Shown: positions 1,294 to 32,729 of the stretch, one piece after another
Layout: the number at the start of each line of letters is the position of its first letter
Numbering within the stretch: position 1 is the stretch's first letter
Virus record (IMG/VR): IMGVR_UViG_3300030059_002966
Coordinates: 1 to 63,647 of that record
From: a virus
Taxonomy: Duplodnaviria > Caudoviricetes
DNA length: 63,647 nt
Strand: one strand, 5' to 3'
Program-made: the position numbers and the translations under genes
The notes under the pieces: model-generated
Database searches by the model: none
What the model saw: only the letters and a program-made list of their open reading frames with translations
Told to the model about the DNA's origin: nothing

Positions 1294-4200
1294 ATGTTTG
1301 AACTAAACGGCGTAGAGCTAACATCACAAGACATAAAAAATTATGCTCAAGAAAACGATATGTCTTTTACAGAAGGCTATGAGTTTCTCTTAGGCAAAGG
1401 TCTTAAAGAGAAAAGCGTAGAGTCATCTGTTGGCCTTATGGAAAACTTGTTTCCACAAATAGACCCTGTTGAGGAAATAGAAGATGTTTCTTCTGTTAAA
1501 GACGCTGGCGTTTGGGCAATGACAGGTATTGTAGACGCTATGGATGACCTTGGGAATATTTTTACTGGTAGCGTGCAAAGAGCTAAGCTACTAGATCCAA
1601 TAAGTAGAATTAAAAAAGGTACAGCAACAGACGAAGATATTCAACAAGTTCTTGAGTTTAACAAGAATCCAGACATCGGCATGACTGACGAAATACTTAA
1701 GCAGGATTTTGAAAGAGAACTAATAGCTGAAAAGTATGGTAAACCAGCCGCGTTCTTTATGACGTTTTTTAAAGAAGGTACTGCGCAGAAATTTCTTCAA
1801 AGCACATTTCTTCAGGTTGGCGCTCTTGCAACAGAAAGAGGTAGAGCACAAGCCGCCAAAGGAGCTGGTATAGGAGTTGGTACAGCGGCATCGTTAAACC
1901 TTGTCCCTGGTTTAGCGTTTTTACCAGAAGAAATAGCTTCAATACCTATAATGGCGCTTTCAGGAGGTTATGCCGGGATAAGCCAAGCTTTAGAAGTTCA
2001 ACTTACATTGTCAGAGCTTATTACCGAAGAGCTTTTAGAAAAAGGTATAAATGCTAACGACGCAACAGTAGAAGACGTTAGAGCCATAATGGAAGATGAA
2101 GAGGTGTTTAGCGATATTAGAAAGAGAGCCGTAAGAAGAGGTAACACTATTGGAACAATAGATGGTTTTACTGGTATTTTTCTGAAAGGAGCTATTAGAA
2201 AAGGTAGAGGCGTTACTAAGCGTAGTATACCTACTAGAAGCAGAACGTCAGGATATTTAGCAGGAAGTGCGTTTGAAACAGGTATGGGTTTAACCAGTGA
2301 ATTAGCTGGGCAAATAGCAGGTGAACAAGACTTAGACATTACAGCTATACTTGAAGAAGGTTTTATAGATAAAACCATGGCGCCGGTAAGCCTTGCGTCT
2401 AACCTTTACAAAGGTCCTGCTACTTACAGCATAAACGGCAAAGAAGGTGATAGTGGAAAAATGTCTGCTAAAAAGTTTTTTAAATACGTAAATAGCTTGT
2501 CAGACACAGAGCTTTACGAGCAAATGCCTTTGTTTAAAGTAGAAAACGATAAGCTTGCTAGCAACATATTGAACCAAAGAGTTTACGATGTAGCTGTTGA
2601 TATGGAAGTTGACACTAGAATTAACGATCCTAAAAAAAGAGCTGAAGCAATAAAACTTCAAAAAGAGCTTAATAAAATAAAAGACAAAAAAGGTGCTACT
2701 TACGATAAAAGAAGAAGCAAGTTAAAAGAAAAAATCAACGCAATAGCAGACGAGTTTGCTGACAATGAAGTTGACGTTACTAAAGAACAACAAAATGAAG
2801 CTATTAAGCTTGAAAGAAAAGACAACGTAAAAAAGTTAATAAAAAGCGAATCTGAAAAGCTAAAAGAAATGGGTAAAGACCTTGGAGGTCTTGATCTAGA
2901 CGCTTACGATACGGAACAAGAAATGGTTGACGCCTTTGTAGCTGCAGGCGGTAACATAAACGAAATAAGTAGAGACGCTGACGGTAAGGTAACACAAGAA
3001 GCTTTGATACTAGGCGAAAAAATGTTTATCAACATAGATCGCGCTGCTGCAATAGAATCTATAAATCCAGCATCTCACGAGGTACTACACAGAGTAATAG
3101 GTAACTCATTTGCAAGCCTTGATGAAGCTACTAGGCTTAAAGTTGCTGGAGGCTTTTTCAACACAATGACTAAGTCACAAAGAAAGTTTGTTACACAAAG
3201 ACTTAAAGATGATTACAATGTAGACGCTGTTGATGATAGCTTTTTCAAAACTAATCAGGCAGAAGAAATATTTACAGTGTTTGCTCAAGGTATAAGAGAT
3301 AATGATATTACTTTTGATGAAGGATTGTTTAGTAAACTAGGTCTTATACTACAGGAGTTTCTTAGAAAGTCACCTATATTCAAGGGTAAGTTTAAAGGAG
3401 AATTTACCAACGGTAAACAAGTGTACAATTTCTTAAAGCAGTATAATCAAGACATCGAGACTGGAAAGTTTAGTGAAAGAGTAAAAGACTTTGCCGCTGT
3501 AGACAGAGCTGAAGGAACTAAAACCGCAGCATCTAACAGACAAATTTCTGATGAAGCTAAAAAAATACAAGCTGAAGTTGATGCTTTAGGCAAAAAAGCT
3601 GATGGTAGCAAGATGACCAAAGCAGAGTATGATGCTGGACCTAACATTAAAGCATACGAAGAGCTTATTTCTAAAGGCAAGTTAAGAACATTAATTAAAA
3701 ACCAACTTGTAAAGCAAGGTATAGACATACAAGCAGAAGACGCTAATGTTAATGGAATACCTTTGCAAGAGTTTTTAGAAGATGTTGAAGGAAGGCTTAC
3801 TACGGAAATATTAAATTTTAATCCAGATAAAGAAACTACAACTCAAGGTAAGTTTGGACTTTCTGGTTTTATAAACCAAAGAATAATATTTAGAACTGGT
3901 GACGTTGCTAAAACTGGTAAGAAGAGAGTTGATACTAAGTCGCTAGATAAAGAGCAAGAGTCTGCAGGCGGAAAGTCTATGGCTGACAACATACAAGATA
4001 AAGAAGATGCTAGCTTAGAAGACTTAGAAACAGAAGATTTATCTGCTCAAGCGCAGCAAGACAAGAAGATAAAAGAAGATAAAGGAGAAGCTGGCATATT
4101 TTCTAAGCTTAGAAAAAGACTAACCTTAAAAGGACAACCTATACTAGGTGAAAGAACTAACTCTGAGTCTATTGTAAATACTATACTAGTAGAAGTAAGA

Positions 4201-7200
4201 AGAATATTTGTTTCAGAAAGAACACCTTTGTCTAGCGATAGTTTTTTAGCTAACTTAGAAAAGTCTTTAGACGCAAGATTATTTAAGCTTATAAAAAATG
4301 CTTTAGGTACTAAAAAAGCTTACGATGACTTTATAATAGAAAACGCTTCTGAAATAGCTAATCTACCTACTAAGCACTTAGTTGCTTTAGAAAGAGAGGT
4401 TAAAGACGATGCTGATCGTATGTTCACTGAGTTTGACAAAAAGCTTACGTCAAAAGAAGATGTTCAAAGAGCTGTAGATCAAGGACTATTAGACAAAGAT
4501 GCTTTAACTAAAATAGACAAAGGACAAGCTGTTAATCTTTACAGAAAGAAAAACAACATAAACCTTGACAACGTGGTTAAGTTTTTTGACGCACCACCTG
4601 TAAACCCTAAGACTAGTAAGCGCAGTGGTTTAAAAGGTACTAGAAAAGATACATTGGCTAGAAGATTTGCTTTTGAGTTAGCTCAAGATGCTTTACCAGA
4701 GATCGCTAGCATGCCTGAGGTTGCAGATTACAGAAGTTTAATAGATAATGCTGAGTTTGGTAAGGTTCAAATAAACGAGCTCTCTAGAATGATTAATAGA
4801 GAGCCTAGGTTAATGTTTTCAGAAACAAAAGCTTCAGGTAAAAGAGCGCCTCTTACTAACACACAAAAAGCGCTACAGAAAGGCTCAAATATAAGCGTCC
4901 CTGTTCAAAATTATCTTGAAAAATTATTGAATGGCGAGCTTAAACAAAGTGAAATTGACGAAAATGACATAAATCAACTATTAGCTAACAAGTTTTTTTT
5001 AGAAAGACCGTATGAAAGAATTTCAGACAAAGGAATACTTAAAGACTTGCTAAGTGAAATAACAAAATTAAGAAAGAAAGGTTTTAAAACGCAGAAGATT
5101 TACAAAATGTACGAGCAGCACTTTATTGCTTTAGCTAATGCCGTAATGCAAGAAAACTCTGCTATTTCCGCTGATAAGGTTGTTAGAGAAGGAGGTAGAC
5201 CTGATCTTACGTTTATATACGATAACAGCGGCACTATAGTTGGTGTTGAAATAAAAATGGATACAGCTAGAGGAGTTGCTCAAACAGCCTCATTTAAGCT
5301 TGTTAACGATAAGTTTGAAGTTTCTTTTTCAAACCCTAATCCTCAAGACACACAGGCTGAACAAGATCTTCAAAATAAAATGTCAGAAAGGCTTGCGCAA
5401 TTGCTTGAAGGCATTAGCTTTGACAATGAAAACCAAGGCGTAAGCACTGATGACGCTAATAAATTAAAGCTGATTTCACACACGTTCTTGAAAGATATGC
5501 GCGTTGAGATTACTGCTGCTTACATTGCGGCGCACTACAACATGAAAAACTTACCAGAAACATTTATAAACATAGGTAACGCTGGCTTGTTCTATATGCT
5601 AGAGAATGTTGTAAAACCTGAACAATCAAAGTTCTACAAAGATAAAGTTAAAAAGCTTGTTAGCGAGGGTATAAGCGAGGCAGACGCTCAAAAACAAGCT
5701 CGCAAAGAGTTTGTAGAAACAAGAGAAATAACGATGAGAGTAGCTGAAGCCTTAAATATACCTGAGTTAAAGTCAAATCAAAAATTATACTTAGGCGCTA
5801 GACTAATTATTAGTGACGCTAGAAAAACAAAAGGCAACACGCACAGAGTTACGGGTAAAATAGAGCCTCAAATAGATTCTAAAAACTTTGACAAGTCAAC
5901 GTTTGGAAATCTTTCTAATCCTAAAGACATGGCTAGGTTTGTTGAAGCTTTAAACAATGACTCAGTTAAGTACGGTTCAAAGTCTTCTAACAGAAACCTT
6001 CAAAAAGCGGCAATGAATGCTAGGCTAGTAGACAAAAACACTAAAGCCAAAGGTATTAGTATATGGGACTTTGATGACACCCTAGCTCAGACTAAATCTA
6101 ATGTACTTTTCACTGATCCTAACGGCAAGAAAGGAAAGCTTAATGCAGAAGACTTTGCTAAGAAAGGAGCTGATCTATTGTCAAAAGGATACGTGTTTGA
6201 CTTTTCAGAGTTTAGCAAGGTAACAGATGGTACGCCTGGGCCTTTCTTCAAAAAGGCTATTGACAGAATTAAAAAGTTTGGAAATAAAGATAACTTCATA
6301 TTAACAGCAAGACCTGCCGACGCTGCTGGTCCTATTAAGCAGTTTTTAGACAGCTTAGGTTTAGACATACCTTTAGAAAATATAACTGGACTAACAAACT
6401 CTACTCCGCAAGCAAAAGCTCTTTGGATAGTAGATAAGGTTGCCGATGGATACAATGACATTTACTTTGCAGACGATGCTTTAGCTAACGTTCAAGTTGT
6501 TAAAGATGTATTAGAGCAGTTTGATATAAAGTCCGACGTACAACAAGCTAAAATAAAAGCTAGCAATAGAAGAAGTGTAGACTTTAATAAAATACTAGAA
6601 AGAAAAACTGGTGTTCCTTTTAACGAAACATTTTCTAGAGCAAGAGCTATAAAAAGAGGTAAGGATAAAAATAAATTTCAATTGTTTGTTCCTCCAAGCG
6701 CTGAGGATTTTGTAGGACTAATATACTACATGATTGGCAAGGGCAGACAAGGAGAACAAGACTTTCAGTTTTTAAAGAAAAACTTAATAGATCCTTTTGC
6801 TAGAGCTAGTAGAGAGGTGGATATGGCTAGACAGTCGATAGTGAACGATTGGAACAACGTTAGAAAAAAACATAAAGCCGCGGTTAAAAAGCTAAGTAAA
6901 AAAATACCAGGCATGGATTACACTTATGATGATGCTATTAGAGTGTTTTTGTGGGAGATTACTGGTCAAGAAATACCTGGCTTAGATAAAAAAGAAATTA
7001 GAGAGCTAAGAGACGTTGTAGTAAAAAACATGGGGCTAATAAAGTTTGCTATGGATCTTAAGCTTATAGTACAACTAAAAGATGGATACGTTAAGCCCGG
7101 TGAATCATGGACGGCTGGTAGTATAGCGTCAGATGTTAACGAAGCTGTAAACGACATTAGAAGAAGTGAGTTTTTACAAGAATGGTCACAAAACATTAAA

Positions 7201-8691
7201 GAGCTATTTACCGAAGAGAACTTAAACAAACTTGAAGCATTGTTTGGAACTACATACAGACAGTCGCTTGAAGACATTCTTTATAGAATGGAAAAAGGTA
7301 AAAATAGACCTAAAGGAACAGACGCTGCTACAAATAGATTTATGAATTGGTTAGCTGGGTCTGTTGGTGCTATAATGTTTTTTAACGTTAAGTCTGCTGT
7401 TCTTCAAAATATATCTATATTAAACTACATAAACTACACAGATAATAACCCTATTCAAGCAGCTAAAGCTTTTGCTAATCAAAAGCAATACTGGGCAGAC
7501 TTTGCTTTTATATTTAATTCTGACTTTTTAAAACAAAGAAGATCTGGCCTTAACACACACATCGAGTCTAACGAGCTAGCTTCAATAGCTGCAAACGCGA
7601 CAAATAAAGCTAGAGCAATACTAGCTTACTTGCTTAAAATAGGTTTTACACCTACTCAAATAGCAGATAGCTTTGCAATTTCAGTGGGAGGAGCAACATT
7701 TTATAGAAACAGAGTAAAAAGATTTGTTAGTGAAGGCATGAGTCAAGCAGAAGCTGAAACACAAGCTTTTGCAGAGTTTAGAGAAACAACAGAAGAGTCT
7801 CAACAGTCTGCTAGACCTGATAGAATATCGAAGCAACAAGCTTCAAGCTTGGGAAGGTTATTGTTAAACTTTCAAAACTATCCAATGCAGCAAAACAGAA
7901 TAATAAAGAAAACTGTTTTAGATATGAAAAACGGTAGAGGAGACATGAAGCAACATGTTTCTAGGTTATTGTACTATGGATTTGCTCAAAACATAATATT
8001 TTTATCTCTTCAAAACGCTTTATTTGCAATGCTGTTTGAGGAAGCAGAAGATGATGACGAGCTTTTAGACACTAAGACTGAAAGAATATTTAACGGTGTG
8101 GCAGACACGCTGCTTAGAGGATCTGGAATAGTTGGTGGAGTAATAGCTACAGTTAAGAATACTTTGTTAATGGCAGACACGCAGCTAAAGAAAGGTAGAA
8201 AAGGTGAAGGCGCTAAAGTACTGATAGAAGTGGCAAATCTATCACCATCGGTAGGTAGCAAATTAAGAAAGATATATAAAGGATACAAAAGTGCAGATTG
8301 GGACAGAAACGCTATATCAGAAATGCCTTTATACGATTCTAGAAATCCTATATGGAGTATATCTGCGCCAGTTATTGAAGCCACTACAAACGCACCTGTT
8401 GACAGAATTGTAAGAAAAATAAACAATATAAGACTAGCTCTAGACTCTAACTACTCTGCAATGGCTAGACTATCGATGTTTCTTGGTGTTAGTCCTTACG
8501 AGCTAGGTATAAACCCAAGTAAAGATGTTAAAGACGCTAAGCAAAGAGCAAAAGATAAAAACAAAGGTAAAGGTAATCAGTCTACTTCTACTAAGAAAGG
8601 AGAAAAAAGATGCAAAGCTGCTACTAGCTCTGGCCCACGATGTAAAAACATGACGAACAACAAAAACGGTAGGTGTTATGCTCACCAATAA
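1294..8691 (+). CDS. Giant (2465 aa) polyvalent ejection-type protein: zincin HExxH, sigma region 2/3-like segment, PD-(D/E)xK nuclease, HAD phosphatase, C-terminal C3H zinc finger
   Basis: HEVLH (aa ~595); FNPDK..LSGFINQRI..SLD (aa ~787-915); PDL..VEIK (aa ~1303-1321); DFDDT/LTAR/K/FADD (aa ~1592-1728); C-x9-C-x10-C-x2-H at the C-terminus. Last of three genes after the tail block. Confidence 0.7.
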   Translation: MFELNGVELTSQDIKNYAQENDMSFTEGYEFLLGKGLKEKSVESSVGLMENLFPQIDPVEEIEDVSSVKDAGVWAMTGIVDAMDDLGNIFTGSVQRAKLLDPISRIKKGTATDEDIQQVLEFNKNPDIGMTDEILKQDFERELIAEKYGKPAAFFMTFFKEGTAQKFLQSTFLQVGALATERGRAQAAKGAGIGVGTAASLNLVPGLAFLPEEIASIPIMALSGGYAGISQALEVQLTLSELITEELLEKGINANDATVEDVRAIMEDEEVFSDIRKRAVRRGNTIGTIDGFTGIFLKGAIRKGRGVTKRSIPTRSRTSGYLAGSAFETGMGLTSELAGQIAGEQDLDITAILEEGFIDKTMAPVSLASNLYKGPATYSINGKEGDSGKMSAKKFFKYVNSLSDTELYEQMPLFKVENDKLASNILNQRVYDVAVDMEVDTRINDPKKRAEAIKLQKELNKIKDKKGATYDKRRSKLKEKINAIADEFADNEVDVTKEQQNEAIKLERKDNVKKLIKSESEKLKEMGKDLGGLDLDAYDTEQEMVDAFVAAGGNINEISRDADGKVTQEALILGEKMFINIDRAAAIESINPASHEVLHRVIGNSFASLDEATRLKVAGGFFNTMTKSQRKFVTQRLKDDYNVDAVDDSFFKTNQAEEIFTVFAQGIRDNDITFDEGLFSKLGLILQEFLRKSPIFKGKFKGEFTNGKQVYNFLKQYNQDIETGKFSERVKDFAAVDRAEGTKTAASNRQISDEAKKIQAEVDALGKKADGSKMTKAEYDAGPNIKAYEELISKGKLRTLIKNQLVKQGIDIQAEDANVNGIPLQEFLEDVEGRLTTEILNFNPDKETTTQGKFGLSGFINQRIIFRTGDVAKTGKKRVDTKSLDKEQESAGGKSMADNIQDKEDASLEDLETEDLSAQAQQDKKIKEDKGEAGIFSKLRKRLTLKGQPILGERTNSESIVNTILVEVRRIFVSERTPLSSDSFLANLEKSLDARLFKLIKNALGTKKAYDDFIIENASEIANLPTKHLVALEREVKDDADRMFTEFDKKLTSKEDVQRAVDQGLLDKDALTKIDKGQAVNLYRKKNNINLDNVVKFFDAPPVNPKTSKRSGLKGTRKDTLARRFAFELAQDALPEIASMPEVADYRSLIDNAEFGKVQINELSRMINREPRLMFSETKASGKRAPLTNTQKALQKGSNISVPVQNYLEKLLNGELKQSEIDENDINQLLANKFFLERPYERISDKGILKDLLSEITKLRKKGFKTQKIYKMYEQHFIALANAVMQENSAISADKVVREGGRPDLTFIYDNSGTIVGVEIKMDTARGVAQTASFKLVNDKFEVSFSNPNPQDTQAEQDLQNKMSERLAQLLEGISFDNENQGVSTDDANKLKLISHTFLKDMRVEITAAYIAAHYNMKNLPETFINIGNAGLFYMLENVVKPEQSKFYKDKVKKLVSEGISEADAQKQARKEFVETREITMRVAEALNIPELKSNQKLYLGARLIISDARKTKGNTHRVTGKIEPQIDSKNFDKSTFGNLSNPKDMARFVEALNNDSVKYGSKSSNRNLQKAAMNARLVDKNTKAKGISIWDFDDTLAQTKSNVLFTDPNGKKGKLNAEDFAKKGADLLSKGYVFDFSEFSKVTDGTPGPFFKKAIDRIKKFGNKDNFILTARPADAAGPIKQFLDSLGLDIPLENITGLTNSTPQAKALWIVDKVADGYNDIYFADDALANVQVVKDVLEQFDIKSDVQQAKIKASNRRSVDFNKILERKTGVPFNETFSRARAIKRGKDKNKFQLFVPPSAEDFVGLIYYMIGKGRQGEQDFQFLKKNLIDPFARASREVDMARQSIVNDWNNVRKKHKAAVKKLSKKIPGMDYTYDDAIRVFLWEITGQEIPGLDKKEIRELRDVVVKNMGLIKFAMDLKLIVQLKDGYVKPGESWTAGSIASDVNEAVNDIRRSEFLQEWSQNIKELFTEENLNKLEALFGTTYRQSLEDILYRMEKGKNRPKGTDAATNRFMNWLAGSVGAIMFFNVKSAVLQNISILNYINYTDNNPIQAAKAFANQKQYWADFAFIFNSDFLKQRRSGLNTHIESNELASIAANATNKARAILAYLLKIGFTPTQIADSFAISVGGATFYRNRVKRFVSEGMSQAEAETQAFAEFRETTEESQQSARPDRISKQQASSLGRLLLNFQNYPMQQNRIIKKTVLDMKNGRGDMKQHVSRLLYYGFAQNIIFLSLQNALFAMLFEEAEDDDELLDTKTERIFNGVADTLLRGSGIVGGVIATVKNTLLMADTQLKKGRKGEGAKVLIEVANLSPSVGSKLRKIYKGYKSADWDRNAISEMPLYDSRNPIWSISAPVIEATTNAPVDRIVRKINNIRLALDSNYSAMARLSMFLGVSPYELGINPSKDVKDAKQRAKDKNKGKGNQSTSTKKGEKRCKAATSSGPRCKNMTNNKNGRCYAHQ

Positions 8692-23614: not shown

Positions 23615-23684
23615 ATTTTAATGGTTTATTGGTTAATAATTAATTACATTTATATTATCTGACAGTGGTCGTAATCAATTTGTG

Positions 23685-24416
23685 TTACAACGTTTCTGTC
23701 TTCAAATATTGCTTAGGGTCAAAAGTTTCGTTGTTAAAGAACAAGTCGTATTGTTCACTAGCAGCTTCAACTTTCTTTGCACCTCTTTCATAAAACTGTG
23801 GTGAACAGTCGAACAAACCAATTTGCTTGGTTGTTTTATCTATAACCATGAATAACATTTCATATCCAAAAAACAACTTACTATATATGTAAGCTTGGCT
23901 ATCATAGTTATACTTAGATGCTGACCATCTAAATTTTTCTATATCAGCCGTAGTTTTAAGATCTATAATCAACTTTTCATCATGGTTAATAATATCAGCT
24001 TTACCTTTCCATTTGTTGCCAAACAACTCAGTAACACTTGGCTCTTCAAATACACAATCTCTGCCGTGTATTAAACCTCTACAGACATCGTTTTCAAGAA
24101 CCGTGTCTATAAGTAACCTAGCGTTGTCAGCTTCAGACTGCAGCAAGCACATCTCTCCACCTGAAAGCTCTTTGTATACTTTAGTGTTTCTGTTTGTTGC
24201 CTCTACAATTTTAAAGCTCTTAAGCTTTTCTGGTTCTAGTATTGCCGTGTGAAAATAACCACCAACCAAAAACGCAGGTATAGGTTTTTGTGGCTCGCGT
24301 AAAGCCAGTGGATTTGAAAGCAACGTAGATATATTAGAGTTACTTAAAAACTGTTGGCCGTACTCACCATAATAATCTTTATCATTTTTGAGTCTGTGGT
24401 AATTTTCTTTAGTCAT
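23685..24416 (-). CDS. RecE/ExoVIII-like PD-(D/E)xK exonuclease (DUF3799-like)
   Basis: LSNS, GGYFH, KGKADI..IIDLKTT, YDSQAYIY. Confidence 0.8.
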   Translation of the reverse strand: MTKENYHRLKNDKDYYGEYGQQFLSNSNISTLLSNPLALREPQKPIPAFLVGGYFHTAILEPEKLKSFKIVEATNRNTKVYKELSGGEMCLLQSEADNARLLIDTVLENDVCRGLIHGRDCVFEEPSVTELFGNKWKGKADIINHDEKLIIDLKTTADIEKFRWSASKYNYDSQAYIYSKLFFGYEMLFMVIDKTTKQIGLFDCSPQFYERGAKKVEAASEQYDLFFNNETFDPKQYLKTETL

Positions 24417-24964
24417 TATTTAGTTAATTGTTTTTCCTGTGCAGGAGTTAAAGTATATTTACTTTTGATAGCACTTATATCGCCGCCGCCAGCTATAAAC
24501 TCCATAGCTTTAACTATTTGAGCGCTTGTGATTGCAGTTTTAGCAGATGCTACTTTAGCAGCAACGCCTTTGCCGTGTTGATTAGTAGCATCGGCATCTT
24601 CAGTATCATCAATTAAGAATAAATTACCAAGAGCATACTTTTTACCATAGGTAGACGCAGCGCCAAACTGCTGAGAAGTTTGCATACCTTTTTGGTTAAG
24701 GTCAACGCCAACTATAGCAGTTGCGTGTATAGCACTTGTGCCGTCACTAAACGTAGCGGTAGTTTTCATTACCGGTACAGGATCAAAAGAGATCATCTCT
24801 TCGTTCATTGTAACATATACTTCGTGTTGTAATAAAAATGGCTTAATAGCCTCTAGGATGTCTTCAGCTTTACGGAAGTAATACTTGCCGAAGCTATTGT
24901 ATGAAGACTTTTTAGCTTTCATCTTTGTTTGAACGTCAGCTAATTTTAAAGTTAAATCTTTCAT
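24416..24964 (-). CDS. ERF-family single-strand annealing protein
   Basis: YNSFGKYYFRKAEDI..GAASTYGKKYALGNLFLIDD..DAD. Confidence 0.85.
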   Translation of the reverse strand: MKDLTLKLADVQTKMKAKKSSYNSFGKYYFRKAEDILEAIKPFLLQHEVYVTMNEEMISFDPVPVMKTTATFSDGTSAIHATAIVGVDLNQKGMQTSQQFGAASTYGKKYALGNLFLIDDTEDADATNQHGKGVAAKVASAKTAITSAQIVKAMEFIAGGGDISAIKSKYTLTPAQEKQLTK

Positions 24965-24992
24965 TTTGGTATTTGGTTTAGTTAATAATATA

Positions 24993-25017
24993 GTTACACG
25001 TTTTTTAAACGTTTTAC
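24993..25017 (-). promoter_or_regulatory. Putative class II promoter GTAAA-N13-GTGTAAC
   Basis: Same architecture as 62249-62273 and 35906-35930. Confidence 0.55.
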
Positions 25018-25026
25018 GTAGGCAAC

Positions 25027-25776
25027 CTACAGGTAGTCAGCTAGTTGCGAGTAATCTACGTATTCTTTAAGCTTGTCTATTGCTTGCTTTTTTAACTGAG
25101 AAACTCGAACGTAAGAGCTGCTTCCTTTTATGTCTAGCTTTTCTGCTATTTGTTTTGCGGAAAGCTTTTCACAGCCTAGTCCAAAGCTTAGTCTTAGTAC
25201 GCTAAACTCTTTTTCAGTTAAATGCAGTAGCATTAAGTCTATTATTTTTTGGTGTAGTATTTCTTTTTTAAAAGGATTTTCACTCTCATCTTCGTATTGA
25301 GGTAGCATATTTTCTTCTACTTCTTTGTCTATACTAGAAAACATAGAATTATAGAACATAGCTTGTTTTTCGCTGTCTTCTTCGAAACCTTTTCTTATAT
25401 CATTCAACTTGTGTTCTGGTATACGCATTGGAGATCTATTTGCATCAGACCCTCTTCTTATTGCTCCTCTTATTCTTTTTGATAAAAAAGATTTAATACT
25501 TTTTTCAGGGTTATCAGATTCAATTATCCTGCTCCAAGTTATCTTGTCAACAGCTTGCGTTAAGCCTATTTGACCCATAGACATTAAGTCAGTAACATTC
25601 ATTATTCCACATGCTGAATCAGATGTTGAGAACTTCCGAGCTAAGTTTTCTACTAAAGGCATAAACTTAATTATAAGTTCGTCTCTAGTGTAGTCTTGCC
25701 ACTCTTTATTTTTTGGCATAGAAGACTTTAAGTCCTTCTTGTACCTAGAATAATTGTTGCTGTTGTAATTTTTCAT
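25027..25776 (-). CDS. Phage sigma-70-family sigma factor
   Basis: Region 2 (LVENLARKF..DLMSMGQIGL..RIRGAI) and region 4 HTH (LTEKE..KQIAEKL..RVSQLKKQAIDKL). Start moved to MKNY at 25776. Confidence 0.88.
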   Translation of the reverse strand: MKNYNSNNYSRYKKDLKSSMPKNKEWQDYTRDELIIKFMPLVENLARKFSTSDSACGIMNVTDLMSMGQIGLTQAVDKITWSRIIESDNPEKSIKSFLSKRIRGAIRRGSDANRSPMRIPEHKLNDIRKGFEEDSEKQAMFYNSMFSSIDKEVEENMLPQYEDESENPFKKEILHQKIIDLMLLHLTEKEFSVLRLSFGLGCEKLSAKQIAEKLDIKGSSSYVRVSQLKKQAIDKLKEYVDYSQLADYL

Positions 25777-25780
25777 ACTA

Positions 25781-25814
25781 CAAATATACATTTTTTTATA
25801 TTAAGACGGCCAAA
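25781..25814 (-). promoter_or_regulatory. Bacteroidota housekeeping-type promoter TTTG-N22-TATATTTG
   Basis: Matches the -33/-7 consensus TTTG/TAnnTTTG; ends 4 nt before ATG 25776. Confidence 0.6.
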
Positions 25815-25891
25815 AAGTTATCAACGGAAAATTGTTAATATATTTCTTTACTTGCTTGGCCATACTACTATAATATTTGAATCTTCTTCGT

Positions 25892-26515
25892 TCATAACTG
25901 TTGGTTTAATAATTCTTTTTCTTTTTTTAATTCATTTGGCATATTGCGATGTACAGTGCGTGTTGACACGTTTAATGCCGCAGAGATCGATCCTATTGTA
26001 ATCTTTTTATTGTCATCATGTAACTGTAGCATAACGCCATAAACGTCGTCAGAACTAATCTTTTTAGATCGACCAACCATTTGGCCTACAATCTTAAGCT
26101 TTTGCTCTTGAGTTAATCCGCAATGCCAGTTAAATATTATTTTTCTAGCCTTGTTTACTGGTGGCTGTTCTAAGTCACACATGCTAACATCATATATTAT
26201 AGACTTTAATAATTGCTCTGATACTTTAAATGTTACGAAGCCATTTTCTTTAGTACATATTGATTGTGCTAATGATTCAAGATCGTCTTGATCTAGCTTA
26301 GGGTTTAAGTACCATAAAACTAATAGATGCCACTTTAAAGATCTGTATGTATTTATCTTAGCCTTACTTCTAAACAACGCATAGTGCTGGTGTGTGCCAT
26401 ACTCATAATAACTACCCCAATCAAAAACCTCAGTAGGCTTATCTGTAACCGGTGGTCTTATATATATAAGTCGATGTCTGTTAAGTATATCCATTTTTCT
26501 ATCAAACTGTGACAT
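25892..26515 (-). CDS. C-terminal HTH DNA-binding protein, possible replication initiator or regulator
   Basis: ITIGSISAALNVSTRTVHRN HTH; its start codon lies inside palindromic site A. Confidence 0.6.
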   Translation of the reverse strand: MSQFDRKMDILNRHRLIYIRPPVTDKPTEVFDWGSYYEYGTHQHYALFRSKAKINTYRSLKWHLLVLWYLNPKLDQDDLESLAQSICTKENGFVTFKVSEQLLKSIIYDVSMCDLEQPPVNKARKIIFNWHCGLTQEQKLKIVGQMVGRSKKISSDDVYGVMLQLHDDNKKITIGSISAALNVSTRTVHRNMPNELKKEKELLNQQL

Positions 26516-26554
26516 TAGCCCTTTACTCTTCCTAGTCTACAGCCTATTGTCACA
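26508..26554. promoter_or_regulatory. Palindromic site A (47 bp)
   Basis: TGTGACATTAGCCC-N19-AGCCTATTGTCACA; homologous to the reverse complement of 33792-33839. Confidence 0.75.
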
Positions 26555-26655
26555 TCGCTAGGCTTTAAAGTTGCAATAATAACTCTTTTTGACTTATCTT
26601 TTGCAAATTTAATTTCATTAAATTGCTTTATACGTTTTTTTAGGTCTGGTTTCAT
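26515..26655 (-). CDS. Small basic protein (46 aa), not in the ORF track
   Basis: MKPDLKKRIK..GRVKG*; its stop overlaps the next ATG (TAATG). Confidence 0.4.
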   Translation of the reverse strand: MKPDLKKRIKQFNEIKFAKDKSKRVIIATLKPSDVTIGCRLGRVKG

Positions 26656-27112
26656 ATAATGATTCGGTTTTGAGGTTTGCAATATCGCTTTTTGCGCCTA
26701 TGTAATAATTCCAATATGCTTGGATACTACAGTCGTCTTTGTATTCATCAGGCATACACTGTGGCATATCTGTTATACCAGTGTAAGATAATCCGCCTGG
26801 CAATATGTTAAGCTTATCTTTACATTTAGTATAAGATAGATGCTCTTTGCCATAGCGCTTAGTATATTCTTTAGACAACGCTACAAAATGATGGTATAAC
26901 CATTCATAGTTATTAGCTGATCGCCTAGCCCATATAGTTGATGGATGATTTCTGTGTGCAGCCTTGTAAGGTACGTCAGCATCTTCACCCATAACAGCGT
27001 GATGTGCGGTACATAGCATTTGAGCTGATTCTAAGATCATCTTGACTACGTGCTTGTTGTACTGAAGCTTAGCAGCTTCGTGTGGGTTTTCGTGTAAATA
27101 AAATATATTCAT
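26618..27112 (-). CDS. Pyrimidine-dimer DNA glycosylase (DenV-like) family protein
   Basis: MNIFYL..KHVVKMILESAQML..HRNHPSTIW..YTKRYGKEH..PQCMPDEYK. Confidence 0.8.
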   Translation of the reverse strand: MNIFYLHENPHEAAKLQYNKHVVKMILESAQMLCTAHHAVMGEDADVPYKAAHRNHPSTIWARRSANNYEWLYHHFVALSKEYTKRYGKEHLSYTKCKDKLNILPGGLSYTGITDMPQCMPDEYKDDCSIQAYWNYYIGAKSDIANLKTESLYETRPKKTYKAI

Positions 27113-27161
27113 TGTTTTGGTTTATTATATTATCTGGTCTTGATCGTTTTTGGTTTGTGTA

Positions 27162-27431
27162 TCACAAATTTTCTACAATTTTTTCTAGTTTTACAATGTG
27201 CTTGTTGATTAAGTGGCATTTTTCATACTCTTCACGCTCTTCGTATATATTCATAAGCGTCATTAGTCTAGCAAGCTCTCCAACACAATGGTCATCGTCT
27301 CTGTCCGCATACCACATCATGTCTGCAGGCTGATCTTGTTCTTCTTTAGACAAGCCATATATTCTTTTTGTAAGATCGCAAGCAATCATATCTGCTAGTT
27401 TTTTCATCTGTTCTTCGCTAAAATTTTCCAT
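27162..27431 (-). CDS. Hypothetical protein with UVR-like C-terminal motif
   Basis: EEREEYEKCHLI. Confidence 0.55.
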   Translation of the reverse strand: MENFSEEQMKKLADMIACDLTKRIYGLSKEEQDQPADMMWYADRDDDHCVGELARLMTLMNIYEEREEYEKCHLINKHIVKLEKIVENL

Positions 27432-27433
27432 AA

Positions 27434-27814
27434 TTATAATTGGTTATACTTATCTATAAGATCACGTGGAGAGCCTACAAATATACATTTATCTTCTTTT
27501 TCTAAAGGTCTATTACAACTGTCACACCAGCCAAAGCCTACTTCAAATATACTTATAAACGTTTCTTTACCATAAGCTTGCCATATATAGTATATATATT
27601 CAAGATCGCCGTGCTCTGTGTCAAGATCTTCTATTTCCCAAGATCTACCGTTTACATTACATTTATTAATGAAAGAATTAGCAATGTCAACGCCTAAGCC
27701 TTCAGGGTAACCGTCGTGGTGTCTGTAAAATTGTGCGTGTATAGCATTTGGCATTTCACTAAATGATTGTCCTGATTCGCGTGTTGCAAATCTAATTTGT
27801 GCTCTTGTACTCAT
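27434..27814 (-). CDS. Conserved phage early protein (HxDGYP type)
   Basis: MSTRAQI..YRHHDGYPEGLG..EYIY. Confidence 0.6.
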   Translation of the reverse strand: MSTRAQIRFATRESGQSFSEMPNAIHAQFYRHHDGYPEGLGVDIANSFINKCNVNGRSWEIEDLDTEHGDLEYIYYIWQAYGKETFISIFEVGFGWCDSCNRPLEKEDKCIFVGSPRDLIDKYNQL

Positions 27815-27829
27815 AGTCTTATAGTTTTG

Positions 27830-27985
27830 TCATAATAATAAATCGTTTTCTTCTCTACATTCATCACATATATCACAGAAGTCATGTTCTTCTTCTGTCA
27901 TTGGTCTCTCACAGAACTGGCAGTGTGGAGTTTCTGCATCGCATGGAGTTATTTCATCCATCCATATCCATTCTTGTTTAGTCAT
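27830..27985 (-). CDS. Small Zn-finger protein (51 aa), not in the ORF track
   Basis: CQFC..CDICDEC; AACTATG start context. Confidence 0.6.
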   Translation of the reverse strand: MTKQEWIWMDEITPCDAETPHCQFCERPMTEEEHDFCDICDECREENDLLL

Positions 27986-27994
27986 AGTTTTGTA

Positions 27995-28252
27995 TTAATC
28001 TAGTAGTACCATGTAAGCCTCGACATTGTTCTTGGTAAACCATCTAAGACCTTTTTGCATGTCATCCGTAAGTGACTTATTGTATATGCCAGCTTCAAAA
28101 AGTGCATTAGCACCCATAATAAAGTCATACATGCTTAGTTCTTCAGCTGTAAGCTCGTAGCTTTGTCCACTAAATGAATTTGTGACTGTATCGCCTTTGT
28201 CGTATATTTCTCCGTTGAACCATTTTGGTAATTTTGTTTTTGTCTTATCCAT
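27995..28252 (-). CDS. Hypothetical early protein
   Basis: Tightly packed co-oriented ORF. Confidence 0.6.
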   Translation of the reverse strand: MDKTKTKLPKWFNGEIYDKGDTVTNSFSGQSYELTAEELSMYDFIMGANALFEAGIYNKSLTDDMQKGLRWFTKNNVEAYMVLLD

Positions 28253-28254
28253 AA

Positions 28255-28497
28255 TTAATCTTCTTGTTCGTTGAAAAATATTGTACCTGTAATCCAGTCT
28301 GTAGATGTCATCTCTTCAAACGTGTGGTGTGTAAAAGTTATTAAGCTAGATACGTCACCCATTGACATAGTACTCCAATGAGTATTACTGCTTAAGGCTT
28401 TTATAACGTCTGTTGTAATGCTTGGGTATTCTTCAATGTTTTTTAGTAATGATTCTTTGAACTCAGGTTTGAGTTTTTTGTAAAGTGAAAGTTGCAT
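28255..28497 (-). CDS. Hypothetical early protein
   Basis: Directly downstream of the class I promoter at 28526-28557. Confidence 0.6.
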   Translation of the reverse strand: MQLSLYKKLKPEFKESLLKNIEEYPSITTDVIKALSSNTHWSTMSMGDVSSLITFTHHTFEEMTSTDWITGTIFFNEQED

Positions 28498-28557
28498 AGT
28501 TATATAATTTAATTGGTTACGTATATATTATCTGTTGGTAATCGTTTTGTGTTTGTG

Positions 28558-29166
28558 TTAGTGTTTTACTAGACCAACTTTGTTGGTGTCATTGAACCAC
28601 TTTGTAGCATTAAGATCGTAGTCGCTGGTGTCTTTGTAGCCTTGATCGAGTAGATCTGCTAGTGTGTCAAATATTTTAGTGTGTCGATCTTGCTTTTGGT
28701 CAATCAAATGCTTTTGTTTGCCAGAATCTGAGTAAATAACATCAAAATTGTCAGGTAATTCAACATTTTTAAGCATTTCTACGCAGTTTGTGTAGCTGTA
28801 AAAGCGTACTTGCGGGTTGTGTATAGCAATTGCGAGCCATTTGTCAAGGTAAGCTTGTGAATAATAGTCGCCACTGTCGTGTATACGAATATAATCTGGT
28901 GATTTAAGTATTATCTCTGCATTTACATGAGGTATAAACTTGTCTGTCTTAGATAATTCGTAGCGATATTCAAAAGCTGGTTTAACATTACCCCAGGTGT
29001 AAGCACCTTTACGAGCGTAGCAGAACTTAATACACTCGTCAGCAAACGGACAGGTGATTTTGCCTGTAACTGACTTGTAAGCTGGTATACCAAAGTTGAA
29101 CACACGTTTATCAAAGTGTTTTGAAGTCTTTTTTAACTTAGAATTTTGTGTTAGTAGTTGAGTCAT
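28558..29166 (-). CDS. Gp88-like protein (Cys triad, possible Fe-S)
   Basis: NSKLKKT..TCPFADECIKFCYA..RIHDSGDY..FYSYT. Confidence 0.65.
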   Translation of the reverse strand: MTQLLTQNSKLKKTSKHFDKRVFNFGIPAYKSVTGKITCPFADECIKFCYARKGAYTWGNVKPAFEYRYELSKTDKFIPHVNAEIILKSPDYIRIHDSGDYYSQAYLDKWLAIAIHNPQVRFYSYTNCVEMLKNVELPDNFDVIYSDSGKQKHLIDQKQDRHTKIFDTLADLLDQGYKDTSDYDLNATKWFNDTNKVGLVKH

Positions 29167-29182
29167 AGTAGTTATTATTTAG

Positions 29183-29257
29183 TGCTTAGCAAGGACTCGA
29201 ACCTTGTGATAACCCGTATTGGAAAAACTACTAAATAAAACCAATGTGTTACTAAGC
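29183..29257 (-). ncRNA. tRNA-like element lacking a D-arm
   Basis: 7-bp acceptor stem GCTTAGT/GCTAAGC; canonical T-arm CAAGG-TTCGAGT-CCTTG; central ATTGG/CCAAT stem with an 18-nt loop; 75 nt. Confidence 0.55.
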
Positions 29258-29266
29258 TATTGTAAA

Positions 29267-29330
29267 ACGAAGCGAGAGAGTTTTCACCGTATCCTCTCAT
29301 AGTGATTTGCATTTAAGCCGGACACTTCGT
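29267..29330 (-). ncRNA. Candidate structured RNA
   Basis: Outer stem ACGAAGTG/CGCTTCGT, inner stem GAGAG/CTCTC; intergenic. Confidence 0.35.
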
Positions 29331-29338
29331 ATATTTAA

Positions 29339-29704
29339 TTAGCTATTGTCACTGTCGTCTTCAGTAACTTCAGCAAACATATTTTCTATATTTTCCATGA
29401 TTTGTCTGGTTACTTCGTCAGAGTTATCAAAGCAAAAGCTTTCGCATGTTACTCTGTTGTCGTAGTCAATACCATAATCAATACTGTAATTGCCAAGATC
29501 ATCAAAGTCATAGCCTTCAATTGCTTCTTCAATCAACAGATGTAGCTTATCGTGTTGCTGTGGAGTTAGCTTAGGCTTACTTAGATCATCGTGTTGCTTT
29601 TTAAGATCTGCTAGCTGCCCAGCATACTTACTAATTTCGATGTTGCTGTCAGAGATCATAGACTCTATAGTTCCGATCTTTACTTGTAATTCTTCTTTTG
29701 TCAT
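29339..29704 (-). CDS. Hypothetical coiled-coil/acidic early protein
   Basis: Downstream of the class I promoter at 29735-29766. Confidence 0.6.
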   Translation of the reverse strand: MTKEELQVKIGTIESMISDSNIEISKYAGQLADLKKQHDDLSKPKLTPQQHDKLHLLIEEAIEGYDFDDLGNYSIDYGIDYDNRVTCESFCFDNSDEVTRQIMENIENMFAEVTEDDSDNS

Positions 29705-29755
29705 AATAGTTTAATTTAATTTAATATTCAGTTTTATTATCTGTTAGTAATCGTT

Positions 29756-29971
29756 TTAAATTTGTGCAAGTTTATCAAACTCTTCACGTTCGTAGTATAA
29801 TGCGTACAGTTGACTTTTAAGATCTGCTACTTTAGCAACCCAATAGGTTGTATCGCTTACAAACCCATACTCTTGCCAATGCTCGGCTTGCTCTTCAGCG
29901 TGTGACAGTAGCTTCTTAAGTACTCTTTCGTTCTTGTATCTAACTACATTATGTGCTTTTCTTCCACTCAT
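29756..29971 (-). CDS. Hypothetical early protein
   Basis: ATGA-coupled to the upstream ORF. Confidence 0.55.
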   Translation of the reverse strand: MSGRKAHNVVRYKNERVLKKLLSHAEEQAEHWQEYGFVSDTTYWVAKVADLKSQLYALYYEREEFDKLAQI

Positions 29972-30456
29972 GATAGATCATATCTGTGGCCGTTAACAAT
30001 CACTTGAACTTCAGGAGCAGTTTCTACAGGCTTACTAAGTTCTTGTCTTATGTAATCTAAAGAACTATCGCTTATTATATTTGTAGTTTTACGATAGTAA
30101 TTCTTGATAATAAACTTAGCTAAGTATATCAGTCGATCTTCCCACTTTGGTATTAGTATACGTTCTGTGTTAGTATAATCTCCGTAAGATGATGGTACTT
30201 GCTCAGTTTTATTTATTTGGTAACAGCTAGATAAGTCTTCACTTATGTTACGCACATAGCCTGTTGAGTATGTAGCAAACTTGATAGGATAGCTAGTGCC
30301 AGGATATGCTCTTTGCATTGGTAACTCATATACTGTTGTACCGTTTTTACGTTGGCGCTCTGTTGTGATGTCTTTGATACCTAGTATCTTGAACAGCGTG
30401 TGTGCTTCTCTCGCACTTCTGATCTCTGTTGACATGTATTCTATATCTGTACTCAT
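29968..30456 (-). CDS. Hypothetical early protein
   Basis: Co-oriented 162-aa ORF. Confidence 0.6.
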   Translation of the reverse strand: MSTDIEYMSTEIRSAREAHTLFKILGIKDITTERQRKNGTTVYELPMQRAYPGTSYPIKFATYSTGYVRNISEDLSSCYQINKTEQVPSSYGDYTNTERILIPKWEDRLIYLAKFIIKNYYRKTTNIISDSSLDYIRQELSKPVETAPEVQVIVNGHRYDLS

Positions 30457-30460
30457 AGTT

Positions 30461-30673
30461 TTATCTTAAACAAGTGCCATAACCTTTTCGCCTGGACACC
30501 TTAGCGATTAGCGCTGCTTGCGCTTGTGATACTATTTGAATCGTGTTACCTGTTTTGTGGTTAGTGATAGGTGCTGACGCTACGCGAGCAACACTTGAAC
30601 AGCTTACACAGGTTTTGTAGTTGTATTTTACTCTTATTGGGTGTACAACCTCACCGCATTTGCAATATGACAT
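30461..30673 (-). CDS. Small C4 Zn-finger protein (TraR/DksA-like finger)
   Basis: CKCG..HPIR..TCVSC; own class I promoter; AACTACTATG start. Confidence 0.55.
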   Translation of the reverse strand: MSYCKCGEVVHPIRVKYNYKTCVSCSSVARVASAPITNHKTGNTIQIVSQAQAALIAKVSRRKGYGTCLR

Positions 30674-30947
30674 AGTAGTTTGTTTTTTGATTCATATATA
30701 TTATCTGCAAGTAATTAATTTGATTTGTGTCGGTCGTGTACGAAGATGTCGAAAACCATGTATAGCACTACGACTAACAATGTTACTATAGTCTGTGTCG
30801 TCATAAGTCATATCTTTTTATTGCAACGACTAAATACCATAGAGCTATTAATACCCAACACCACTCGAACATATACCGTAGATTATAATTGTTAGTATTG
30901 CTATAAATCCTATATACATTATAAGATAGTTTATTGCTACTTTAGTT

Positions 30948-31172
30948 TTATTGCTCATTGTAAGATGGATTATATTGGCGGAACAACTCTGTTGCCATAG
31001 TGCCAAGTTCGTTATTGTTACACTCTTCCATAGTCTCTCTGATTCTTTCATACTCTGCTCTACCGCTCTTATACCAACGGTGGTCGTCACTCATATTATA
31101 GTACCAGTCGTGTCCTTTTAGTAGTAACTCTAGTTTACTTAGTAGTAAGGGTGTTTGTTTTTTATTTAACAT
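30948..31172 (-). CDS. Hypothetical early protein
   Basis: HDWYYNMSDDHRWY motif typical of small phage early proteins. Confidence 0.6.
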   Translation of the reverse strand: MLNKKQTPLLLSKLELLLKGHDWYYNMSDDHRWYKSGRAEYERIRETMEECNNNELGTMATELFRQYNPSYNEQ

Positions 31173-31380
31173 CTTCTTGTTTTATTTTAATTAGTATATC
31201 GTTTAAGTTTTCTACGTAAGATTGACCTATGATGTAATCTACATTGTCATTCTTGACATCGTAACTCATCCACTCAATCATATCTTCTATTGAGTTAACT
31301 GCTTCGATCTTGTCAAAGTCTTTTTGCCTTGCATCTTGACTACCTAGTAGTAGAGATACACTTATAAAAATTGCTATCAT
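31162..31380 (-). CDS. Hypothetical protein with N-terminal hydrophobic segment
   Basis: MIAIFISVSLLLG. Confidence 0.55.
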   Translation of the reverse strand: MIAIFISVSLLLGSQDARQKDFDKIEAVNSIEDMIEWMSYDVKNDNVDYIIGQSYVENLNDILIKIKQEDVK

Positions 31381-31381
31381 A

Positions 31382-31609
31382 TTATCTTGTTGCTAAGCCG
31401 CCTAGTATATGGTTAGAGGTTAAACGTGCTTCTTTATCTTTGTTCCAATTGATCTCGTCAGAGTTAATGTAGCAAAAACCTTTATGGTGGAACTGCTCAG
31501 ACATTGGTATCTCTTCGTAGTTCTTAGGTAGTTGGTGAAGTTTATGAGGTATAAACTTAGTATTATTAAGAGTAATAATTTTAGTAGAATGGTATTTAAT
31601 AGAGTTCAT
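31382..31609 (-). CDS. Hypothetical early protein
   Basis: Own class I promoter; AACTACTATG start. Confidence 0.6.
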   Translation of the reverse strand: MNSIKYHSTKIITLNNTKFIPHKLHQLPKNYEEIPMSEQFHHKGFCYINSDEINWNKDKEARLTSNHILGGLATR

Positions 31610-31674
31610 AGTAGTTATTATTATTATTATTATTTACAGTTATATTATCTGATAGCAATTAATTTAATTTGTGT

Positions 31675-31887
31675 TTAGTCTTGAGTATATTTGTTAAGGT
31701 ATTTAAGGTTTATCTTGTGTACAAGGGATAACAGTATTTCGTTTCTAGTTTCTTGCACTTCTTTTACGAAGGCGTCATTAGATTCTTTGTGTTCACCTAT
31801 ATCAAAGATAACTTCTTCTACAGTGTTTTCAATATCGTTCACTAGATCTTCTAGTAACTCGTTAGTAATAGTTTTGTATGTATACAT
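31675..31887 (-). CDS. Hypothetical acidic early protein
   Basis: Co-oriented ORF. Confidence 0.6.
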   Translation of the reverse strand: MYTYKTITNELLEDLVNDIENTVEEVIFDIGEHKESNDAFVKEVQETRNEILLSLVHKINLKYLNKYTQD

Positions 31888-31889
31888 AG

Positions 31890-32069
31890 TTATTTATATA
31901 AAGTGTTATACAAGTCATCAATTAGATCTTGCTCAGTTTCATTATCTTCTAGTTGGCAATCACATTCAACAAACTCTTGTATCTCTTCGTATACCTGTCG
32001 AGCAGACTTGATAGTCATTTGATGGTGAAAGTAATCGAGTGTATGATCGTTCCAGTGAAATGTAGTCAT
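31890..32069 (-). CDS. Small acidic early protein (59 aa), not in the ORF track
   Basis: MTTFHWNDHT..NTLYK* fills the gap exactly. Confidence 0.6.
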   Translation of the reverse strand: MTTFHWNDHTLDYFHHQMTIKSARQVYEEIQEFVECDCQLEDNETEQDLIDDLYNTLYK

Positions 32070-32075
32070 AGTAAT

Positions 32076-32204
32076 TTAGTTTTTAAGTGTATAATATAAG
32101 TCATCAGTGATAGTCTCGAAGTATTTATCGAAGTCATCATTAGTATGTAACTTGTACATCGATCTTAGTAGTAATTTAATGATTAGTAGTTTAATAGTAT
32201 TCAT
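32076..32204 (-). CDS. Small early protein (42 aa), not in the ORF track
   Basis: MNTIKLL..YTLKN*; AACTACTATG start behind the promoter at 32233-32263. Confidence 0.6.
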   Translation of the reverse strand: MNTIKLLIIKLLLRSMYKLHTNDDFDKYFETITDDLYYTLKN

Positions 32205-32287
32205 AGTAGTTATTATTATTTGGTTACAGTTATATTATCTGTAAGTGATTAATTTGATTTGTGTAAAGGTAGTATATTCGTTTAGTT

Positions 32288-32327
32288 GTAGAAAAGAAGA
32301 AGGGGATATACCACCTCCTCTCTCTAC
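32288..32327 (-). terminator. Long purine/pyrimidine hairpin after 32337..32570 (terminator or processing site)
   Basis: GTAGAGAGAGGAGGTGG/CCCCTTCTTCTTTTCTAC pairs with G-U on the minus strand; no clear U-tail. Confidence 0.45.
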
Positions 32328-32336
32328 TTCTAATGA

Positions 32337-32712: not shown

Positions 32713-32729
32713 GTGCGTTGCATTTTGTA

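Follow-up and report, generated by a model that had tools for sequence, protein, structure and literature searches.

Domain 2 of the sigma-70 family (sigma-2) attaches to core RNA polymerase at the clamp helices of beta-prime and deals with the -10 element, and it is known as part of free sigma factors. Phage T4 gp55 is a sigma-2-only protein able to direct initiation; it is small and free, is made during infection, and works with gp33 and the sliding clamp. CrAss-like phages have a virion RNA polymerase. The N4 virion RNA polymerase is likewise treated as virion-delivered transcription machinery (PMC4496689). The present analysis concerns a 63.6-kb virus record (IMG/VR record IMGVR_UViG_3300030059_002966, positions 1 to 63,647; Duplodnaviria, Caudoviricetes), referred to in full as the window and estimated to be 98% complete. 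A 2465-residue open reading frame (ORF) in this record, P0001 or the giant, contains at residues ~783–882 a sub-domain that is very likely a true sigma-2 homologue, remote and highly diverged, and that possibly serves as a docking handle on host RNA polymerase.

The preliminary description of the window had placed a sigma-factor-like segment inside the giant at 3640–4050, corresponding to residues 783–918, from motifs matched by eye. The ORF and the strings quoted from residues 787–915 are present, with AYEEL starting at residue 787 and NFNP at residues 841–844, and profile comparisons provide evidence that the region 2 resemblance exceeds chance. These comparisons used a 46-sequence alignment of the segment (A2), an independent 23-sequence alignment (A1), and a sigma-2 profile built from 30 diverse Sigma70_r2 matches from five bacterial genomes. 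First, a directed hhalign comparison of A2 with the sigma-2 profile gives Prob 86.7, P=4.3e-6 and a score of 35.5, placing residues 819–882 on regions 2.2–2.4, and A1 matches the same profile with P=4.7e-4 over 80 columns that include region 2.1. Second, all 123 decoys score far lower: the maximum is 11.0 among three reversed alignments, 14.4 among 60 column shuffles and 17.5 among 60 block shuffles. Third, when the sigma-2 profile is run across the full-length family profile (2465 positions), the top placement is at residues 821–880 (score 33.4, P=0.0019) and the runner-up scores 16.4. The phage's accepted free sigma factor scores lower against the same sigma-2 profile (Prob 42, P=2.6e-4). 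Sigma70_r2 is also the Pfam family that the largest number of members of the two alignments match, below the cut-off in each case (4 of 46, best E=0.0017, and 1 of 23), and the third hit of the A1 profile by sequence is the SigE fragment 8b3z_A (E=0.27), aligned via FNPEKK. The well-kept positions in the family are the hydrophobic core and an NF(N/D)P...G(W/Y)IN motif only, and the helix aligned to regions 2.3/2.4 keeps its aromatic and basic positions.

Structural comparison points in the same direction. A template-free AlphaFold model of residues 780–895 has four helices (predicted local distance difference test, pLDDT, 84.2), and the NFNP loop lies between the helices aligned to regions 2.2 and 2.3/2.4. 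A Foldseek search of the Protein Data Bank (PDB) with this model, a check that the preliminary description had proposed, returns low root-mean-square deviation (rmsd) matches that are chains of sigma or sigma-holding entries only. Among the 26 matches listed, 11 are sigma or sigma-containing entries at 3.0–4.2 Å over 78–98 columns, and the other 15 lie at 5.7–17.6 Å. Rank 1 is the SigE N-terminal domain (prob 0.69, template modelling (TM) score 0.64 by target length, rmsd 3.7 Å), so that 8b3z_A is found twice, by sequence profile and by fold. The matched chain is explicitly sigma at ranks 1 and 17; in the other sigma rows we take it to be sigma from the entry titles. In the ESM Atlas, 24 of the 30 named neighbours listed for residues 783–890 belong to Sigma70_r2; the highest score is 0.96, which shuffled proteins reach about 1 time in 100. 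The sub-domain forms the first part of a conserved module of ~370 residues (~780–1150), the second half of which is termed modC. An AlphaFold model of the whole module finds nothing in the PDB at E≤0.001 (Foldseek) and one homologue in BFVD at E=2.6e-5. Phage sigma factors stand at ranks 2, 6, 25 and 42 among the best 50 BFVD matches listed, none of them significant, and rank 42 (prob 0.41) is a gp55-named protein of Delftia phage PhiW-14.

The likeness ends with region 2. The preliminary description had also read a region 3.2 in the pattern SLD...L.D.I.D at residues 883–905, which does not stand: it is not conserved (S883 in 29 of 105 sequences, L884 in 24 of 45, D885 in 23 of 64), has no sigma alignment, and is predicted to be disordered. 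The resemblance is limited to close relatives of the window. The hhalign sigma-2 alignments stop by about residue 882, no separate region 3 profile having been built, and in the whole-module AlphaFold model the linker has pLDDT below 50 at model residues 103–133 and 147–156. The suspicion, voiced at the same time, that a clear region 4 is lacking was sound. In sigma factors the helix-turn-helix of region 4.2, within domain 4, reads the -35 element and contacts the beta flap. A sigma-4 profile of 29 sequences, which recovers the phage free sigma as a positive control (Prob 93.9, P=1.5e-7), finds no match by hhalign in A1 (P=0.43) or in the full-length family (P=0.5). Lacking both region 3 and region 4, the segment is a sigma-2-only module rather than a sigma factor, and the idea of a complete sigma module is abandoned.

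The sub-domain is shared by all the related giants compared. Relatives of giant residues 2001–2300 are encoded by 364 of 369 candidate IMG/VR stretches, and a comparison set of 11 genomes was assembled from the window and ten near-complete related genomes. An A2 hidden Markov model (HMM) detects the sigma-2-like sub-domain in all 11 giants (E from 1e-31 to 8e-4), and modC is present in six of them. Identity to the window is 17–31% for the sub-domain and 51–74% for the free sigma factor.

Docking on the host polymerase was examined by co-folding the A2 domain with residues 242–372 of a Flavobacteriaceae beta-prime subunit. The pair scores 0.36 against 0.02 for the best control and earns a mark of "weak support". 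Of 80 solved complexes 58 attain this mark, as do 2 of 110 mismatched pairs; at scores of 0.60 or below the mark is carried by only 7 of the 80 solved complexes and by both of the passing mismatches. Contacts agree by at least 66% between runs, and the partner pLDDT is at least 66. The reading we prefer, to which we give slightly less than an even chance, is that the domain is a sigma-2-derived docking handle on host core RNA polymerase, carried in a giant protein that is probably ejected. The giant would leave the capsid with the DNA, taking the sigma-2-like domain along; the domain would attach to the sigma-2 site of host core RNA polymerase and so bring polymerase to the entering phage DNA; and the docking would assist the initial round of early transcription. 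Once made, the free sigma would be the main factor that recognises the bipartite early promoters by their sequence. Packaging, polymerase binding and an effect on transcription are the three elements of this scheme that we infer.

Several results count against the docking handle or the homology beneath it. No single search is significant database-wide. Sigma70_r2 never reaches the Pfam cut-off, no sigma domain is found in the giant at E≤10, a six-frame Sigma70_r2 search of the window returns nothing at E≤10, and the A2 profile has no sigma among its six hits to PDB sequences at E≤10. The best Foldseek E value of the residue 780–895 model against the PDB is 0.96, with none at E≤0.001. A phmmer search of 1.84 billion proteins returns only the giant's own relatives, 120 in all, and hhalign against the phage's own sigma family gives Prob 0.2, that alignment being shallow (effective number of sequences, Neff, 1.8). 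The hhalign alignment does not preserve the Q-E of DLxQE, the polar residues of region 2.2. The domain diverges fast, and this is as compatible with a scaffold or an arms-race surface as with a handle on clamp helices, which are highly conserved. The co-fold pass is only weak, and because sigma-2 and the clamp helices are a solved textbook pair, it may reflect likeness more than binding. Packaging of the giant in the virion is an indirect deduction, and no cultured phage among the 50,697 records has a homologue.

Part of this evidence would suit a sigma-2 descendant that is no longer tied to polymerase and has been reused, for example in binding single-stranded or end DNA at ejection, or as a helical scaffold between the peptidase-like part of the giant and modC. 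The core-binding polar residues of region 2.2 are not conserved in the alignment, identity among related phages is low, little beyond the hydrophobic core and the NF(N/D)P...G(W/Y)IN motif is well kept, and the co-fold support is weak. However, all 11 giants retain the domain, those that have lost the adjacent modC included, the aromatic and basic positions of the 2.3/2.4-like helix are kept, and no other function is supported. We regard such reuse as unlikely, though by no means remote.

The proposed division of labour between docking handle and free sigma draws on the early promoters. The preliminary description had counted one free-standing sigma factor in the genome, which Pfam and PHROG matches confirm (Table 1). 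Its start is probably the ATG at 25776, the listed 254-residue ORF being five codons too long; homologues have 249 residues and begin MKNY. A search of 50,697 phage records gives no match for the protein. Two distinct non-host promoter classes had also been described; the early one is confirmed as a bipartite, non-host-looking element, the exact copies of which far exceed expectation (Table 1). The Bacteroidota promoter consensus is TTTG/TAnnTTTG, and the early class is unlike it. Host-type TTTG-N17-23-TAnnTTTG sites are not enriched in the window (5 and 3 against 2.15 expected), and it is accordingly not claimed that the late promoters are host-like. De novo 8-mer enrichment against a maximal-order background was uninformative.

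The early element recurs across the comparison set. All 11 genomes carry a relaxed form, ACARR-N18/19-GATAAT, on the opposite strand to the giant gene. There are 77 sites on this strand against 8 on that of the giant, and the corresponding counts for the backward control are 4 and 7. Among the sites listed, the consensus in most relatives reads approximately ACAAAnTAAATACGA-N8/9-nGATAATAT. The long upstream box, approximately ACAAAnTAAATACGA, is seen in genomes G007, G008, G010, G013, G014, G016 and G018 (loci L132–L143 and L148–L163), and the base preceding GATAAT tends to vary by genome, A, G and T being the commonest. The free sigma is likewise found in 11 of 11 genomes, as a partial gene at a contig end in one. 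It occurs in 9 of 36 further related records, including one of the two that are at least 90% complete; since most of these records are fragments, nothing is concluded from that count. G008 (loci L136–L139) has two copies of the free sigma gene, one close to each end of the 66.4-kb record, which suggests terminal redundancy or an assembly overlap.

A comparison of domain and promoter across related genomes had been put forward in the preliminary description as a way to link the two. Carried out on the 11 genomes, it does not favour the giant's domain as the reader of the promoter: a conserved free sigma with region 4 fits a shared promoter with a long upstream box better than does a fast-evolving domain that lacks region 4. 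An apparent co-occurrence of module and promoter, in which the exact promoter pattern appeared in 4 of 15 genomes and the module, at E≤1e-5, in 6 of 11, was discarded as an artefact of strict thresholds, as relaxed searches find each in 11 of 11.

The position of the free sigma gene raises a question of its own. It lies downstream of the early-class promoter at 27129–27159, and its start codon in six relatives adjoins the end of the ORF upstream or overlaps with it. Something present at infection must therefore fire this promoter first, and this bootstrapping problem keeps the idea of an injected factor alive. In the window only, an insert of ~100 nucleotides (25776–25900, minus strand) separates the upstream helix-turn-helix-like ORF from the sigma gene. 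It carries TTTG-N22-TATATTTG directly before the ATG at 25776, which we take to look like a Bacteroidota-type -33/-7 promoter giving a nearly leaderless transcript.

A stronger version of the injected-factor idea, close to that of the preliminary description, is that a virion-delivered minimal sigma, alone or with modC, programs host core polymerase at the early promoters before any phage protein is synthesized. It would account for the sigma-2 homology and for the presence of the domain in 11 of 11 giants, and T4 gp55 supplies a precedent. It would also suit an early promoter class that is specific to the phage group, occurs in 11 of 11 genomes and is unlike the Bacteroidota consensus, in a window where host-type bipartite sites are unenriched and the free sigma operon sits behind an early-class promoter, its start joined to the upstream ORF in six relatives. 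If this were true, a sigma-2-only factor delivered by the capsid would fire the first early promoter and thereby set synthesis of the free sigma going; the problem of the first transcript would then have a third solution, beside host-sigma promoters and injected polymerases, in abundant marine Flavobacteriia phages. However, the giant has no sigma-4 or other recognised DNA-binding domain for the upstream box ACAAAnTAAATACGA, and modC is missing from 5 of 11 giants whose genomes keep the same promoters. Where the GATAAT core is shared, it is the free sigma and not the domain that is well conserved. The window's free sigma has a possible host-type promoter of its own in TTTG-N22-TATATTTG, and packaging of the giant is putative. 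On balance this account is improbable.

A domain that occupied the sigma-2 site could also act as an inhibitor, the ejected giant blocking host sigmas as a sigma mimic for host shut-off. The same homology and weak docking results would apply, and the absence of regions 3 and 4 and the fast divergence fit a competitive binder. Host-modifying domains are described for polyvalent injected proteins (PMC5512222 and PMC7824862). On the other side, one or a few ejected molecules presumably could not titrate the many polymerases of a cell, a phage without its own polymerase needs the host core active, and no result points specifically to inhibition, which makes shut-off quite improbable in our estimation. 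Finally, a chance resemblance, in which an unrelated four-helix domain merely shares a short F(N/D)P...aromatic-I motif, would agree with the non-significance of every database-wide statistic, with the frequency of TM scores of 0.4–0.6 among small helical bundles, and with the concern that AlphaFold and the language model may follow the same short motif and so are not fully independent, but it is very unlikely given a directed P of 4.3e-6 that is replicated with an independent sequence set and beats 123 of 123 decoys, a single hit along 2465 positions that outscores a bona fide sigma on the same profile, and a fold search and an Atlas search that both single out sigma-2.

The docking handle presupposes that the giant enters the cell, and its genomic setting is consistent with this. 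The giant ORF closes a same-strand late block, after the terminase, portal, capsid and fibre-like genes (Table 1). To judge from gene order and size alone, its product is probably a virion protein of the multi-domain, polyvalent type, internal or ejected. Homologous giant proteins number 163 at E≤0.001, and at that threshold 120 representatives of 50%-identity clusters match the module (phmmer). Where module homologues have names, these are "hypothetical protein" or a gene-call line only, and none is a free sigma. The giant matches no Pfam family at the cut-off, as a whole or in pieces, and, as a whole, no PHROG family at E≤0.01; megablast and tblastn against the 50,697 phage records give no match for the whole gene, for residues 703–1202 or for residues 1780–2400.

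Table 1. Features of the window discussed in the text, with the basis of each assignment.
Feature	Coordinates	Strand	Basis
Giant ORF P0001, 2465 residues	1294..8691	+	ORF list, translation
HEVLH (HExxH), residues 595–599	3076..3090	+	family pattern V..HE.LH in 37 homologues; no Pfam match
Sigma-70 domain-2-like sub-domain, residues ~783–882	3640..3939	+	hhalign, AlphaFold, Foldseek, ESM Atlas
Linker, acidic then basic, residues 883–935	3940..4098	+	predicted disordered; conserved E..DLS at its end
modC, second half of module, residues 936–1153	4099..4752	+	conservation over 120 sequences
HAD-like phosphatase motif set: DFDDT (residue 1592), LTAR, K, DDA..NV	6046..6573	+	strongly conserved
Best-conserved part of family, residues ~1780–2400, hydrophobic stretches	6631..8493	+	conservation map
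Bipartite early promoter-like element CACAAA-N17/18-AGATAAT, nine exact copies	23654..33012	-	0.01 expected
Free-standing phage sigma factor	25027..25791	-	Pfam Sigma70_r4 E=9.9e-8; phrog_351 E=4.7e-18
Large terminase	43151-45373	same as giant	PHROGs
Portal	45363-47804	same as giant	PHROGs
Capsid-type structural protein	49032-50513	same as giant	PHROGs
Second giant ORF, 2766 residues	53099-61399		fibre-like; Ser/Thr/Asn/Gly-rich by eye

A conservation map of 37 full-length homologues shows conservation of the HExxH motif, the module and the HAD-like motif set, and very strong conservation of the C-terminal ~600 residues. The HEVLH upstream of the sigma-like domain suggests a zincin-like peptidase, as judged from the motif alone. 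In modC, S937, R940, Y1010, DLVQxER (1028–1034), GTRKD (1115–1119) and D1132-A1133 are nearly invariant, and its weak leads are an RPA32 winged-helix match at E=0.007 and an Atlas match to LPD39 with a score of 0.78. The DFDDT, LTAR, K and DDA..NV elements are what we take to be HAD motifs; Pfam HAD matches the giant at E=0.071, below the cut-off. The HAD-like set and the following ~600 residues (6046–8493, residues 1585–2400) contain many invariant residues and have no Pfam family and no cultured phage match. A match to the SutA RNA polymerase-binding domain at residues 545–564 (E=0.0064 for that piece) was dropped, its columns being unconserved in the family. In a loose check for an RNA polymerase, no window ORF apart from the two giants exceeds 813 residues, and a similarly loose check of the 37 full-length homologues finds no conserved polymerase-type DxDxD motif except the HAD-like DFDxT.

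The 2766-residue ORF is presumably a fibre or host-recognition protein, and a second giant of 1800–3600 residues is also found in related genomes. Relatives of the terminase comprise 87 records, in phages of Flavobacterium, Cellulophaga, Tenacibaculum and Maribacter, and a neighbouring gene carries a type-9 secretion sorting domain. On these grounds the phage host very probably belongs to the Flavobacteriia. The window also encodes a phage GroEL-like chaperonin, the close relatives of which (47–80% identity) occur at loci L001–L012 in bins variously named Parvibaculum, Maricaulis, Sphingobacteriales, Flavobacteriaceae and archaea; some of these are probably mis-binned phage contigs, and one contig, at 63,395 bases, is of phage size.

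As an internal module of giant late proteins, sigma-2 would represent a new phage hold on host RNA polymerase. The phage group is widespread, with its 163 homologous giants and 364 related IMG/VR stretches. Its genomes combine a conserved, non-host-looking early promoter, a free sigma behind that promoter and no polymerase of their own, and the question of which factor transcribes the first early genes in uncultured Flavobacteriia phages becomes testable. The literature search found no account of an injected or polyvalent phage protein that contains a sigma-like domain, supplementary domain lists lying outside its coverage; the main text of Iyer et al. 2017 (PMC5512222) does not use the word "sigma" (0 occurrences), and of phage sigma factors PMC7824862 deals with free ones only.

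The giant can be compared with several described systems. Polyvalent proteins of phages and conjugative elements (Iyer et al. 2017, PMC5512222) unite several unrelated effector domains in one giant chain, with a peptidase that releases them and a composition that differs between relatives. Like them, the giant is very large and multi-domain, with an HExxH peptidase-like motif, enzyme-like domains, a zinc-ribbon-like terminal end and a domain content that varies between relatives (here modC, in 6 of 11). However, no Pfam LPD family matches the giant, the Atlas match to LPD39 being a weak lead. Free phage sigma factors, including that of the window and those of phiEco32-like phages (PMC8948821), share with the domain membership of the sigma-70 family through region 2. 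The window's free sigma differs in possessing region 4 and in being well conserved among related phages, and hhalign detects no particular resemblance between it and the giant's domain (Prob 0.2). The N4 and crAss-like systems likewise involve a giant protein among late genes of a podovirus-type genome, a proposed role in early transcription on entry, and phage-specific early promoters; their proteins are polymerases with catalytic motifs, whereas the present giant has a sigma-2-like piece only and would need the host core. T4 gp55 similarly consists of a sigma-2-like part only, but the domain described here is one part of a giant late protein and has no known partner. A further counterpart is sigma-70 domain 2 itself (PF04542; SigE 8b3z, and 3ugo with -10 single-stranded DNA). 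The giant's domain departs from it in being embedded at residue ~800 of a 2465-residue protein with no region 3 or 4, in its longer 2.1–2.2 loop, in not keeping the DLxQE polar residues, and in scoring below the Pfam cut-off. It shares with sigma-70 domain 2 the order of the helices, the F(D/N)P loop between the 2.2 and 2.3 helices, and the aromatic-I-x-x-x-I/L-x-x-R/K helix at regions 2.3/2.4, and entries for this domain are its best structural matches, at rmsd 3.0–3.7 Å.

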